Counted from the first letter of the stretch, positions 16,991-45,392 are shown. The stretch: DNA of 64,000 nt from Oxalobacteraceae bacterium (GCA_027484285.1 JAIXTG010000114.1:34848-98847); one strand, 5' to 3'. Numbers and translations: made by a program. The notes: a model not told the origin generated them from the letters alone.

Positions 16991-17067
16991 CATGTGTCGC
17001 TGACGGTCGTCAGCAGCATGCCCTGGCAGCCCAGGTCTTCAAGGCTGCAACGCGGTTCGCCACGTTG
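16991..17067 (+). repeat. Dispersed three-hairpin element, copy 1
   Basis: GCTGAC/GTCAGC, then CATGCCCTG, GCAGCC/GGCTGC around CTTCAA, then a TTCG-loop hairpin. Confidence 0.8.
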
Positions 17068-17207
17068 ACCGATCCAGTCCGCTTCGCACCGACCACCGCG
17101 GACGCGTGTCATCACGACGCGGGTGCTTTTCATGTTCAACCCTTCGGGAAGTGTCCCGCTCCCGAAAGGGCGTGGTGCTCCCGGTCTTCAACTACCAGGA
17201 GAAACCC

Positions 17208-17459
17208 ATGTCCCTTGCGTTCGCATCGGCACCTTTGAGTGCTGAACAGGCCCGCGCCGAATCCATCGGCTACCAGGCTCTGGCCTACGTCGGCAAGCGC
17301 CTGCCCCTGCAGGTGCTGTGCAGCGCGGCCGGCCACTACATCGGCACCGCCGATGTGGACGGCCCGGTCTCGCGCGAGTCGGTCAGCTACTTCCGCTCGC
17401 ACCACGCCGCCGAGCACGCCCTGCAAACGGGCCGCTGGCAGCAGCGACTCAACCCGTGA
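17208..17459 (+). CDS. Conserved ICE hypothetical protein (83 aa)
   Basis: AGGAG RBS; LPLQVLCSAAGHYIGT...PVSRES. Confidence 0.75.
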   Translation: MSLAFASAPLSAEQARAESIGYQALAYVGKRLPLQVLCSAAGHYIGTADVDGPVSRESVSYFRSHHAAEHALQTGRWQQRLNP

Positions 17460-17483
17460 TGTCCAACCACCAGGAGCCAAGTC

Positions 17484-41691: not shown

Positions 41692-44585
41692 TGGCCTGGA
41701 CCTTGCCTTGGCCGCGCGAGGGCCTCGCATCGGTTGGCCCTGAGCCGCATGGCGAGGACGCCTGGTCGCAGCATCTGACGTCGCTGGCGACGCACGGCAT
41801 TCCCGAGCCGGGAACCGCAACCGATGACCGGCCGCGCCGTCCGGCCGCCGAGGCGGACCTGCAGGCCCTCTACGGCGTGTCGCCGTCCTTCGCCGATCTG
41901 CTCCCCTGGGTGGAGTACCTGCCCGGCTCCAAGAGCATGCTTCTGGAAGACAGTCAGTCGGTCGCGGGCTTCTTCGAGCTGGCGCCGGTGGGCACCGAAG
42001 GCCGCGAGATGGCCTGGCTGTGGCAGGCGCGCGATGCATTGGAAAACGCGCTGCAGGACTCCTTCGATGAACTCGACGAGAACCCCTGGGTCGTGCAGCT
42101 CTACGCCCAGGATGAATCGACCTGGGACAACTACCTGCGCGGCCTGTCCGACTACGTGCGGCCGCGAGCGCAGGGCAGCACCTTCACAGAGTTTTACGTG
42201 AGGTTCTTCGCGCACCACCTTCGCGCCATCGCCAAGCCCGGGGGCCTGTTCGAGGACACGACCGTGACGCGCCTGCCGTGGCGCGGCCAGGTCCGGCGCG
42301 TGCGCATGGTGGTCTACCGGCGCGCGAATGCGGTGACAGCATCGCGGCGCGGCCAGTCCCCCGAGCAGGCGTTGACGACGATCTGCGATCGGCTCGTGGG
42401 CGGCCTCGCCAACGCTGGCGTGAAATCCCGCCGCATGGAGGCGGCCGACATCCACGACTGGCTGCTGCGCTGGTTCAACCCACACCCGACGCTGCTCGGC
42501 CCCAGCGCCGACGACCGCGAGCGCTTCTATGCGCTCACGCGCTACCCCGAGGCAGCCGAAGACGGCGAGATCGAGCTGGCCAGCGGAGACTTCGCTCAAC
42601 GCCTGTTCTTCGGCCAGCCCCGCTCGGATGTGGCGAACGGCACCTGGGTGTTCGACGGCATGCCGCACCGGGTCATCGTGATGGATCGCCTGCGCATGCC
42701 ACCCGCCACAGGCCACGTCACTGGCGAGACGCGCAAGGGCGGCGATGCGGTCAATGCGCTGTTCGACCAGATGCCCGAGGACACGGTGATGTGCCTGACG
42801 ATCGTGGCAACGCCGCAGGACGTGCTCGAAGCGCACCTGAACCACCTGAGCAAGAAGTCGGTCGGCGAGACATTGGCCTCGGAGCAGACTCGCCGCGACG
42901 TGCAGGAAGCGCGTGGGCTGATCGGCAGTGCGCACAAGCTCTACCGCGGTGCGCTGGCCTTCTACCTGCGCGGGCACGACCTGGCGCAGCTCGACAGCCG
43001 CGGCCTGCAACTGGTGAACGTCATGCTCAACGCCGGCCTACAGCCGGTGCGCGAGGAAGACGAAGTGGCGCCGCTGAACAGCTACCTGCGCTGGCTCCCG
43101 TGCGTGTTCGATCCGGCGCTGGACAAGCGCCAGTGGTATACGCAACTGATGTTCGCGCAGCATGCCGCAAACCTCGCGCCGGTATGGGGCCGCAGTCAGG
43201 GCACGGGACATCCGGGCATTACGTTCTTCAACCGCGGCGGCGGGCCGATCACCTTCGACCCGCTGAACCGGCTCGACCGGCAGATGAACGCCCACCTGTT
43301 TCTGTTCGGCCCCACTGGCTCGGGCAAGAGCGCCACGCTCAACAACATCCTGAACCAGGTGACTGCCATCTACCGGCCGCGCCTGTTCATCGTGGAGGCC
43401 GGCAACAGCTTCGGCCTGTTCGGCGACTTCGCCATGCGGTTGGGCCTCAAGGTGCATCGCGTGAAGCTCGCGCCCGGCGCCGGGGTCAGCCTCGCGCCGT
43501 TCGCGGATGCGCACCGGCTGGTCGATACGCCCAGCCAGGTGCAGACGCTGGACGCCGATGCGCTGGACGAGGACGAGGAGCCCGCGGCGCAGGCAGCGAA
43601 TCGCAGCGAGGAAGCGGAAGAGCAGCGCGACGTGCTCGGCGAGCTGGAGATCACCGCGCGGTTGATGATCACCGGCGGCGAAGACAAGGAAGAAGCGCGC
43701 ATGACGCGCGCCGATCGCAGCCTGATCCGGCAGTGCATCCTCGATGCGGCCCAGCGCTGCGTGACCGAGCTGCGCACCGTACTCACGCGCGACGTGCGCG
43801 ACGCGCTGCGCGAGCGCGCCCGGGACTCATCGCTGCCCGAGATGCGCCGCGCGCGCCTGCTGGAGATGGCGGACGCGATGGATATGTTTTGCCAGGGCGT
43901 CGACGGCGAGATGTTCGATCGGCCCGGCACGCCCTGGCCCGAGGCCGACATCACCATCGTGGACCTCGCCACGTTCGCGCGCGAGGGCTACAACGCGCAG
44001 CTCTCGATCGCGTACATCAGTCTCATCAACACGGTGAACAACATCGCCGAGCGCGACCAGTTCCTGGGTCGGCCGATCATCAACGTGACGGACGAAGGCC
44101 ACATCATCACCAAGAACCCGCTGCTCGCGCCCTACGTCGTGAAGATCACGAAGATGTGGCGCAAGCTCGGCGCTTGGTACTGGCTGGCAACGCAGAACAT
44201 CGACGACCTGCCCAAAGCGGCCGAGCCCATGCTCAACATGATCGAGTGGTGGATCTGCCTCTCGATGCCACCGGACGAGGTGGAGAAGATCGCGCGCTTC
44301 CGCGAGCTGAACCCGGCGCAGAAGGCCCTGATGCTGTCGGCCCGCAAGGAGGCGGGCAAGTTCACCGAGGGCGTCATCCTCTCCAAGAGCATGGAAGTGC
44401 TGTTCCGTGCGGTTCCGCCCAGCCTGTACCTGGCGCTGGCTCAGACCGAGCCGGAAGAGAAGGCGGAACGCTTTCAGTTGATGCAGCAGTACGGCATCGG
44501 CGAGCTGGATGCGGCCTTCAAGATCGCCGAGAAGATCGACCGCGCTCGCGGCATCGAATCGCTGGCGCTTGATGCGCTGGCGTAA
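41691..44585 (+). CDS. Conjugative transfer ATPase (VirB4/TraC, PFL_4706 family)
   Basis: Walker A GPTGSGKS, Walker B VTDEGH, and WRKLG. Confidence 0.92.
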   Translation: MAWTLPWPREGLASVGPEPHGEDAWSQHLTSLATHGIPEPGTATDDRPRRPAAEADLQALYGVSPSFADLLPWVEYLPGSKSMLLEDSQSVAGFFELAPVGTEGREMAWLWQARDALENALQDSFDELDENPWVVQLYAQDESTWDNYLRGLSDYVRPRAQGSTFTEFYVRFFAHHLRAIAKPGGLFEDTTVTRLPWRGQVRRVRMVVYRRANAVTASRRGQSPEQALTTICDRLVGGLANAGVKSRRMEAADIHDWLLRWFNPHPTLLGPSADDRERFYALTRYPEAAEDGEIELASGDFAQRLFFGQPRSDVANGTWVFDGMPHRVIVMDRLRMPPATGHVTGETRKGGDAVNALFDQMPEDTVMCLTIVATPQDVLEAHLNHLSKKSVGETLASEQTRRDVQEARGLIGSAHKLYRGALAFYLRGHDLAQLDSRGLQLVNVMLNAGLQPVREEDEVAPLNSYLRWLPCVFDPALDKRQWYTQLMFAQHAANLAPVWGRSQGTGHPGITFFNRGGGPITFDPLNRLDRQMNAHLFLFGPTGSGKSATLNNILNQVTAIYRPRLFIVEAGNSFGLFGDFAMRLGLKVHRVKLAPGAGVSLAPFADAHRLVDTPSQVQTLDADALDEDEEPAAQAANRSEEAEEQRDVLGELEITARLMITGGEDKEEARMTRADRSLIRQCILDAAQRCVTELRTVLTRDVRDALRERARDSSLPEMRRARLLEMADAMDMFCQGVDGEMFDRPGTPWPEADITIVDLATFAREGYNAQLSIAYISLINTVNNIAERDQFLGRPIINVTDEGHIITKNPLLAPYVVKITKMWRKLGAWYWLATQNIDDLPKAAEPMLNMIEWWICLSMPPDEVEKIARFRELNPAQKALMLSARKEAGKFTEGVILSKSMEVLFRAVPPSLYLALAQTEPEEKAERFQLMQQYGIGELDAAFKIAEKIDRARGIESLALDALA

Positions 44586-44595
44586 GGAAAACACC

Positions 44596-45351
44596 ATGCA
44601 GGTCGCTCGCTTCATTCCATCCCGCTCAGTCGCATTGGTCTCTGTGCTGCTCATCGTTGCGCTGATCGCGGCGGCCTGGCTGGGCTTACAGCCACAAACG
44701 CCGATCGCCGAAGACGCTTCAGCGTCGGCCGAGTTCAGCCAGGCGCCCAAGCTGGCACTCGCCGCCGCGAGCGGCCCGCCTTGGCGCTATGGTCGCGACG
44801 ATGCGCGCTTCACGGTAGTGGAGTACGCCGACCTCGAATGTCCGTTCTGCCGCGCGTACTTCCCGGCGCTGAAGCAGTGGATCGACGCGCACCCCGAGGT
44901 GAACTGGCAGTGGCACCACCTGCCGCTGGCGCCGCACGAGCCTGCGGCGACTGCCAATGCGCGCCTGGTCGAGTGCGTTGGTGAGGCCGGCGGCTCGGCC
45001 GCGTTCTGGCGGGCGGTCGAATGGGTCTATGCGCACACCCGCGGCGACGGCCAGGGCCTGCCCGAGGGCCTGGGCTATCCAGGCATCACGCCGGCCGCCC
45101 AGCAGTGCCTCGACAGTGATCGCCCTGACACGCTGATCCGCGCGCAGTCGGCGAGCGCCGCGCAGGAGGGCGTCAAGGTCACGCCCACGCTGCGGTTGCA
45201 GGATCGCCAGTCCGGCAAGACGCTGCTGCTGCATGGCCCGGTGGAAGGCGATGCGCTGCTGTCGGCCATCGACCTGCTGGCGGCCGGCGGCACCACCGAC
45301 ACTGCATCGAAGGAAATGCCTGCCGAGTCCCTCGGCGACATGCCCAGGTAG
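44596..45351 (+). CDS. DsbA/thioredoxin-fold protein
   Basis: EYADLECPFC and GVKVTPT. Confidence 0.85.
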   Translation: MQVARFIPSRSVALVSVLLIVALIAAAWLGLQPQTPIAEDASASAEFSQAPKLALAAASGPPWRYGRDDARFTVVEYADLECPFCRAYFPALKQWIDAHPEVNWQWHHLPLAPHEPAATANARLVECVGEAGGSAAFWRAVEWVYAHTRGDGQGLPEGLGYPGITPAAQQCLDSDRPDTLIRAQSASAAQEGVKVTPTLRLQDRQSGKTLLLHGPVEGDALLSAIDLLAAGGTTDTASKEMPAESLGDMPR

Positions 45352-45392
45352 CCCCCGATCTTCAAGGCTACGCCGCGGCCTTGGCCGCGCTG
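45315..45392 (+). repeat. Dispersed three-hairpin element, copy 5 (overlaps the dsbA 3' end)
   Basis: GCCGAG/CTCGGC, CATGCCCAGG, GTAGCC/GGCTAC, CGCGGCC/GGCCGCG. Confidence 0.8.

Follow-up and report, generated by a model that had tools for sequence, protein, structure and literature searches.

Five radC RNA copies as probable structured leaders of a transfer-competence-like regulon in an ICEclc-type element

The window considered here, by which we mean the whole stretch of DNA that was analyzed, comprises 64,000 nucleotides from an Oxalobacteraceae bacterium (GCA_027484285.1 JAIXTG010000114.1:34848-98847) and carries five copies of a structured RNA element, which are the subject of this report. 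It is an integrative conjugative element (ICE) of the ICEclc/pKLC102 type (MPF_G), with nearly all genes on the plus strand. An initial annotation, made from the sequence alone, had pointed to five copies of a covarying three-hairpin element in front of backbone operons, had cautioned that this element might equal the described radC motif, and had proposed a search against Rfam. When the window is scanned with Rfam gathering cut-offs, exactly five matches are found, all of them to RF01754 (radC RNA), on the plus strand and over model positions 1-149. They are listed with the first base of hairpin P1 and, for two copies, with the score from R1, a covariance model of our own that was built from five copies, three in the window and two in another genome, and whose E-values are rough.

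16981-17126, plus strand: radC copy 1, long form; RF01754 116.0 bits, R1 131 bits; P1 starts at 16991
19330-19489, plus strand: radC copy 2, short form; RF01754 87.2 bits, R1 50.6 bits; P1 starts at 19340
20877-21026, plus strand: radC copy 3, long form, at the head of the DUF3577 operon; RF01754 118.3 bits; P1 starts at 20887
25582-25736, plus strand: radC copy 4, short form; RF01754 84.9 bits; P1 (CGTG) starts at 25592
45305-45454, plus strand: radC copy 5, long form, internal; RF01754 118.2 bits; P1 starts at 45315

The scores of these full-length matches (84.9-118.3 bits, E-values 1e-14 to 1e-22) compare with a gathering score of 40 bits, and the whole assembly holds the same five copies and no further one. 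The five starting points given in the initial annotation correspond to the first base of P1, ten positions after the Rfam start, and agree with ours except at copy 4, where 25591 had been given and we read 25592. The P1 and P2 stem variants, the CATGCCC(A/T)GG linker and the CTTC(A/G)AG loop that had been quoted are likewise present as written. The linker reads CATGCCCTGG in copy 1 and CATGCCCAGG in the other four copies, and the P2 loop reads CTTCGAG in copy 2 and CTTCAAG in the other four, such that the unpaired CAUGCCCAGG linker and the CUUCAAG loop of the family are conserved. From the start of P1 to the start codon there are 178-235 nucleotides, and from the end of the third hairpin 105-160 nucleotides.

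By every feature that could be tested, namely score, helices, additional base pairs, unpaired bases and location, all five elements belong to the radC RNA family. Copies 2 and 4 differ from RF01754 as described in being a shorter subtype with a different 3′ module, and nothing excludes their membership. In Proteobacteria the radC motif was described as lying upstream of DNA-related genes (Weinberg et al., 2010, Genome Biol 11:R31, PMC2864571), so that the caution was well placed and, with a full match to a characterized family, the structure stands while the implied novelty is gone. Because 80% of the RNA genes in MPF_G ICEs have already been reported to be radC or STAXI (Cury 2017, PMC5587801), the multiplicity of radC in such islands is not new either. 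The window therefore holds ordinary members of a catalogued family, in the element type where they are expected. STAXI, the other orphan motif enriched in MPF_G ICEs, occurs near ssb, topoisomerase and anti-restriction genes (Weinberg et al., 2010), and no STAXI match is found in the window at the gathering score.

The fold was examined on 80 loci from related islands, found by way of the DUF3275 protein encoded behind copy 3 in beta- and gammaproteobacteria and in a few alphaproteobacteria; the closest DUF3275 relatives belong to Burkholderiales and Rhodocyclales genomes. These loci replaced a class-wide sampling that gave radC in 2 of 300 genomes, which is too sparse for statistics. Within the 1.43 Mb that they cover, R1 finds 212 radC copies, every one of them (212/212) on the gene strand. 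The alignments of the relatives are fitted to the model, and the counts that follow are of sequences rather than of independent events. Among 103 distinct sequences, 95.2% of the cells are paired as the model prescribes, compared with 22-48% when the partners are slid against each other. Changes on both sides occur at 23 of the 35 pairs and every helix covaries, which bears out the conserved, covarying structure that had been proposed.

The choice of strand is equally clear. G-U and U-G pairs outnumber A-C and C-A combinations by 307 to 48 overall, by 17 to 2 in P1 and by 20 to 0 in P2. Two positions are conserved as G-U (in 62 and 91 of the 103 sequences), and without both of them the count is still 154 to 44. 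It is therefore the sense strand that folds, and the wobble argument of the initial annotation holds on this large sample. A template-strand promoter of the Frpo type is excluded by the sense-strand wobbles and by a scan of 16.4-26 kb that finds no sigma-70-like hexamer pair. The Frpo/ssi single-stranded DNA (ssDNA) promoters of F and IncI plasmids resemble radC as repeated structured elements ahead of establishment or anti-restriction-type genes. However, in Frpo the -35 and -10 elements are rebuilt by a single long, imperfect hairpin of the transferred template strand, whereas radC consists of four short hairpins and a pseudoknot.

The description as a three-hairpin element was accurate for P1, P2 and P3, and was incomplete in that it lacked a 3′ hairpin module (P4) and a pseudoknot of the P2 loop. 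Copies 1, 3 and 5 have a clear P4 at model positions 118-149. For copies 2 and 4, it appears that the model aligns P4 to a different hairpin near the ribosome-binding site, and the true P4 is apparently missing in copy 2. The pseudoknot comprises four base pairs between the 5′ part of the P2 loop (GAUC) and a GAUC just 3′ of P3, and its central pairs covary (AU 73, GC 19 and GU 9 for one; UA 85 and CG 16 for the other). In two of the window copies its strands lie as follows:

17034-17037 with 17067-17070, plus strand: pseudoknot of copy 1, GGTC with GACC (GGUC/GACC)
20930-20933 with 20965-20968, plus strand: pseudoknot of copy 3, GATC with GATC (GAUC/GAUC)

The corresponding strands are GACC/GGUU in copy 2, AGACC/GGUCU in copy 4 and GAUC/GAUC in copy 5. 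We do not claim this pseudoknot as new, since the ZWD alignment (Weinberg's own) has 39 pairs where the Rfam model has 35 nested ones, and thus probably includes it already. When further tertiary pairs were sought by a mutual-information scan, nothing came up beyond the known helices and signals that are slot-specific (phylogenetic).

The only common variation of the linker, CCCAGG versus CCCTGG (the latter in copy-1-type sequences), keeps the palindrome CCWGG, a Dcm/EcoRII-type word found for example at 17023-17027 in copy 1 and 20919-20923 in copy 3. The flanking CATG words never vary. This constancy could be coincidence or a constraint at the DNA level.

A second conserved arrangement lies upstream of copies 1-4. 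In 79 non-redundant upstream regions, anchored on the first base of P1 as position 0, the conserved positions are A-65 (78/79), G-60 (79/79), C-45, T-42, T-41, T-6 (71/79) and A-10 (54/79). Together these positions outline an inverted repeat, AAAnCGG-N12/13-CCGnTT, centered near -53 and followed by a -10-like hexamer, CAnnCT, both at a fixed distance from P1. A MEME motif has been described that is common to those ICEclc promoters whose activity is confined to transfer-competent cells (Sulser 2022, PMC9286271), and the 3′ half of the box agrees with its CCGTTT part. Moreover, an inverted repeat with 12-13 bp spacing fits the published description of the BisC site (for BisC chromatin immunoprecipitation peaks, see Antar 2025, PMC12409273). 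BisDC-dependent, bistable expression and the binding of BisC and BisD have been published for ICEclc only.

A crude regular expression for the box recovered almost nothing useful, and a position weight matrix (PWM) trained on other genomes only, never on the window, was used instead. At 16 bits or more it finds seven sites in the window against 0.23 expected. Three of these lie upstream of copies 3, 2 and 1, three at 12240, 46170 and 54155 (minus strand), and one, at 30110, inside a coding sequence. Three further sites score 12.9-13.7 bits: the box of copy 4 (25522) and those at 36616 and 30484. The promoter elements ahead of the radC copies are:

16924-16954, plus strand: box of copy 1, AAATCGG-N13-CCGTTT, -68 to -38 from the P1 start; 17.6 bits; candidate BisC/BisDC site
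19272-19302, plus strand: box of copy 2, ..GCCGG-N13-CCGATT; 20.1 bits
20819-20849, plus strand: box of copy 3, AATGCGG-N13-CCGATT; 24.8 bits, the highest score in the window; conserved in 59 distinct copy-3-type loci
25522-25552, plus strand: box of copy 4, AAACAGG-N13-CGGTTT; 13.7 bits, a marginal score at the right distance
16980-16985, plus strand: -10-like hexamer of copy 1, CATCCT, 5 nucleotides before P1; with the conserved T-6 and A-10, and resembling the ICEclc PinR -10 element TGTCGATCCT
19329-19334, plus strand: -10-like hexamer of copy 2, CACGCT
20875-20880, plus strand: -10-like hexamer of copy 3, CACGCT
25580-25585, plus strand: -10-like hexamer of copy 4, CAGGCT

A sigma-54 reading of the box (GG-N10-GC) was rejected by eye on several promoters, where spacing and bases do not fit.

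The boxes that are not followed by radC, all of them candidate BisC-type sites, help to place the start of transcription:

12240-12270, plus strand: box without radC, ahead of the ATG at 12335
30484-30514, plus strand: box without radC, ahead of the ATG at 30575
36616-36646, plus strand: box without radC, ahead of the ATG at 36710
46170-46200, plus strand: box without radC, ahead of the ATG at 46266
54125-54155, minus strand: box without radC, ahead of the ATG at 54061

At these sites the start codon follows 23-28 nucleotides past the position equivalent to the start of P1, and among relatives an open reading frame (ORF) begins 90-99 nucleotides from the box start at 35 of 57 radC-less boxes. 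In ICEclc, PinR has the -35 element TTGACT and the -10 element given above, and its transcription start was mapped 25 nucleotides before the start codon by 5′ rapid amplification of cDNA ends (RACE); the acaB/inrR promoter of the window has TTGACT and TGCCGATGCT. Because the radC copies share this promoter layout with short radC-less leaders, position +1 is predicted to fall at about the first bases of P1, a placement that draws on the fixed register, on homology and on a single transcription start that was mapped in ICEclc. Within the 5′ tail of the Rfam model, one base alone is strongly conserved, the U at position 5, and this is the T-6 of the hexamer; we read the first ten model positions as promoter DNA rather than RNA.

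At copies 1-4, P1 thus most likely begins at +1 of BisDC-type, transfer-competence-like promoters, which ties the earlier placement of the copies in front of operons to a specific promoter type. If transcription begins at P1 as predicted, the 5′ end of the RNA would be buried in the P1 stem. Judged from this arrangement, radC looks like a cassette of about 150 nucleotides inserted between +1 and the ribosome-binding region. In the papers that could be searched we did not find this promoter register, the assignment of +1, or the coding overlap of copy 5 that is described below reported for radC. The four radC-linked boxes and the five without radC outline a candidate regulon of about nine promoters, a number not far from the 11 BisC peaks that have been reported for ICEclc. 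Behind the minus-strand box, which is palindromic and could serve both directions, a 127-aa ORF (53680-54061, minus strand) with an N-terminus that reads as AbrB/MazE/SpoVT-like runs divergently from the relaxase region.

The regulatory module of the island also has the features expected for promoters of this type. It comprises genes for a LysR regulator, alpA, parA, an ORF in the bisD position, a DUF2857 gene, an AcaB-like gene, a DUF3158 gene (InrR family), ssb and topB, and shares the alpA-parA-bisD-bisC-bisS layout with ICEclc. The features that bear on BisDC are:

5852-6199, plus strand: alpA (Pfam)
6200-7105, plus strand: parA (Pfam)
7156-9018, plus strand: 620-aa ORF in the bisD position, assigned by position only, with no Pfam match
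8915-9592, plus strand: BisC-like gene, DUF2857 (Pfam)
10832-10848, 12196-12212 and 14155-14171, no strand assigned: three CTATCCCCAGGGGATAG palindromes (8-1-8), identical to the core of ICEclc bisS

BisC carries a DUF2857 domain (Carraro 2020), and bisS, the site in ICEclc at which the ParB-like BisD is loaded, is GAGCTATCCCCnGGGGATAGCTC (Antar 2025). By sequence identity, the three palindromes are most likely bisS sites rather than generic parS or KorB operators. Hence the window has a DUF2857 BisC-like gene, bisS palindromes, and a weak inverted repeat of about 12-bp spacing upstream of the predicted start.

Copy 5 departs from this pattern. Its P1 and linker encode the last 11 codons of an upstream gene:

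44509-45351, plus strand: DsbA/thioredoxin-like ORF (Pfam Thioredoxin_4 and DSBA), with its stop codon TAG in CCCAGGTAG inside radC copy 5

Of 20 further copies from this slot, 19 have a stop at the same point of this frame, and the P1 variants of the slot stay paired within the coding sequence (GCCGAG/CTCGGC, GCCGGC/GCCGGT, GCCGAC/GTCGGC and GCCAGC/GCTGGC). In the PWM scan of the window neither a box nor a hexamer was found upstream of copy 5. Consequently, copy 5 does not stand in front of an operon as a promoter element would, and we read copy 5 as part of a longer transcript. The maintenance of a copy that lacks a promoter inside a transcript argues for a role of radC as RNA, not as promoter DNA.

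Between each radC copy and its start codon there is a further stretch of leader:

17127-17207, plus strand: rest of leader 1, with a hairpin CUCC...GGAG that pairs the Shine-Dalgarno (SD) sequence in the minimum free energy (MFE) fold; ATG at 17208
19490-19521, plus strand: rest of leader 2; ATG at 19522
21027-21121, plus strand: rest of leader 3; ATG at 21122
25737-25769, plus strand: rest of leader 4; ATG at 25770
45455-45544, plus strand: rest of leader 5; ATG at 45545

For all five full leaders the MFE fold pairs the SD sequence with an upstream CU-rich stretch. In copy-1-type leaders the anti-SD CUCC and the GGAGA are conserved while the loop varies, and across the 59 distinct loci the copy-3 leader hardly varies as far as the ATG. 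There is also a second module between radC and the start codons, made of a TTCAaCCC / CCATCCCC word, a GC-rich hairpin and then the SD-pairing hairpin; in copies 2 and 4 the Rfam model seems to place its P4 on this module instead of on a true P4. A leaderless mini-ORF starting from the AUG of P1 was considered and set aside as unsupported.

Published work on ICEclc supplies a point of comparison. Two verified transfer-competence promoter regions printed there, P81655 (...CCCCCAT GCCTGCTGACGTTGTGAGCGACATGCC AGGCAACC) and P58432 (...GAAAT GCCTGCCGACGTTGTGCGCGACATGCC CAGGTAGTCC), are the 5′ part of radC including P1, although the ICEclc papers treat them as promoters, without mention of radC. Judged by synteny, P81655 is the counterpart of copy 3 and P58432 that of copy 5. 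In ICEclc, 5′ RACE failed upstream of ORFs 81655 and 58432 and worked at two promoters without radC. Nowhere on that island is read coverage higher than upstream of ORF81655, yet the reporter output of this region equals that of Pint, which the authors ascribe to post-transcriptional control. Both the RACE failure and the mismatch between coverage and reporter are consistent with a leader that is stable and structured and is subject to modulation after transcription. At P58432, RNA-seq coverage shows no drop and the authors doubted an independent promoter, in agreement with copy 5, which does not look like one either.

The genes behind the five copies have varied contents. Copy 1 is followed by small proteins without assigned function and a DUF5983 protein, copy 2 by a weak KfrB-like protein and DUF3085, copy 3 by DUF3577, DUF3275 and DUF932 proteins, copy 4 by a DUF6094 methyltransferase and an SNF2 helicase, and copy 5 by a 192-aa protein and then type IV secretion genes such as TraU. 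Behind copy 4 (26443-30411), the methyltransferase is DUF6094/Eco57I-like and the helicase an SNF2/ResIII protein of 809 aa, a pair reminiscent of anti-restriction methyltransferase-helicase proteins such as DarB of phage P1. In the relatives, radC copies occupy syntenic slots, each with the same downstream protein family; the copy-3 slot is represented by 73 syntenic copies, and 30 relatives carry four or five radC copies per island, spaced as here. A plasmid collection gave five weak radC matches, two of which are of the copy-5 type under DsbA/thioredoxin genes.

Terminator-like hairpins with T-runs lie at 19239-19259 (just before copy 2), 20778-20796 (before copy 3) and 24179-24210 (after the DUF932 gene; strong). 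Since such hairpins precede copies 2 and 3 and each of these two units has its own promoter box, the units headed by radC seem to be insulated from one another. Between the strong terminator and the promoter box of copy 4 lies an IS1595-family (ISXO2-like) transposase gene at 24393-25379, the only minus-strand gene of that stretch.

Taken together, these observations are best explained if the radC copies are structured 5′ leader RNAs of a transfer-competence regulon that act after transcription. We assign this reading a probability of roughly 60%, and have much less confidence in any single molecular step. Several observations count against it. The CAnnCT hexamer is a weak -10 element, and a generic sigma-70 scan of 16.4-26 kb gave no sites. 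MFE z-scores of whole leaders are modest (-1.5 for copy 1 and -1.2 for copy 5), and the stabilizing and SD-gating roles discussed below draw on analogy and on MFE predictions. In addition, the MEME alignment of Sulser places the shared promoter motif of P81655 and P58432 on P1 itself, in contrast to the box placed here some 45 nucleotides upstream of P1; ICEclc is known to us from printed fragments. Finally, Gaillard reported a very weak primer-extension product about 250 nucleotides before the ATG of ORF81655, which would put the start about 50 nucleotides upstream of P1.

Other functions for a folded element at these positions must be weighed against the same evidence. The leader RNA, alone or with a factor, could modify RNA polymerase to pass terminators in long operons, as put RNA of phage HK022 or EAR RNA does. 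Such processive antitermination would suit a compact, pseudoknotted fold with invariant unpaired bases that heads multi-gene units and, as copy 5, lies once within a long one, and the copy-3 unit does contain a terminator-like hairpin (23249-23269) before the DUF932 gene. We nevertheless consider it unlikely, given that units with their own boxes look insulated by the hairpins at 19239-19259 and 20778-20796 and that radC has no sequence likeness to put, EAR or nut. The initial annotation had also allowed for an ssDNA signal. If the plus strand is the one transferred, the hairpins in the incoming DNA could be signals for complementary-strand priming or for recombination; ICEs are transferred in single-stranded form, the orientation is common to all copies, G-T wobbles fall on the plus strand, and the genes behind radC resemble plasmid leading-region genes. 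This proposal is weakened because the structure has its 5′ edge at the predicted +1 of a promoter that is followed by short leaders where radC is absent, because every copy stands directly upstream of a gene and is then followed by an SD-pairing hairpin, and because two positions are kept as G-U, which is unfavorable in DNA. We judge it quite unlikely, and a cis-acting RNA ahead of genes, the other option that had been offered, is the best reading.

A ligand-sensing riboswitch, with the pseudoknotted core as its aptamer and the SD-pairing hairpin as its expression platform, is an idea left open ('switch?') in the original description of radC (Weinberg et al., 2010). The conserved unpaired bases, the compact fold and an SD sequence that is predicted to be paired in all leaders could be accommodated by such a model. 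However, the downstream genes have no metabolic function in common, the 3′ module is a different one in copies 2 and 4, no mutually exclusive pairing was found between the core and the SD hairpin, and the internal copy overlaps a coding sequence, all of which make a riboswitch very unlikely. Hardly credible, and already disfavored, is the proposition that the palindromic P1 and the conserved words serve as duplex DNA only, as an operator or promoter for BisDC or another protein and without any fold. It would account for the MEME alignment of P1 from P81655 and P58432 with the motif of other transfer-competence promoters, for CATG words in P1 that never vary, and for a linker that keeps CCWGG. 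Yet every helix has compensatory changes, which differ between copies of one island that a single regulator would serve; the asymmetry of G-U over A-C is meaningless for duplex DNA; and copy 5 has no box and lies partly in coding sequence.

If the radC copies are indeed structured leader RNAs, the 5′-terminal P1 hairpin may protect the transcript from 5′-end-dependent decay, by analogy with stabilizer hairpins of the ompA-leader type, in which a stem is likewise predicted at the first transcribed bases. Compared with the ompA leader, radC is far larger and has conserved unpaired bases, and its own stabilizing effect is inferred. The pseudoknotted core with its invariant unpaired bases (the CCCAGG linker and the CUUCAAG loop) might then serve as a docking site for a putative factor of the island or of the host. 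In our model, this factor would control the downstream hairpin that is predicted to hide the ribosome-binding site, and the DNA-handling, establishment and anti-restriction-type genes behind radC would be gated after transcription.

We tentatively propose, as a possibility to be held with reserve, that radC is the post-transcriptional arm of the BisDC regulon: as a pseudoknotted leader it would begin at +1 (copy 5 being freed from a polycistronic RNA instead), stabilize the message by its 5′-terminal stem, and bind an island-encoded or host factor that opens the SD-hiding hairpin. If this proposal is true, synthesis of establishment and anti-restriction-type proteins would be restricted to transfer-competent donors or fresh transconjugants, the mismatch between RNA and reporter at ICEclc P81655 would be explained, and an orphan RNA family known since 2010 would gain a function. 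RadC has been in Rfam since that year without an assigned function, and is one of the two dominant RNA elements of MPF_G islands, which spread catabolic, resistance and virulence traits among beta- and gammaproteobacteria. The BisDC-type promoter register and the presence of radC in two published ICEclc fragments make this orphan motif testable in an existing system, Pseudomonas putida carrying ICEclc.

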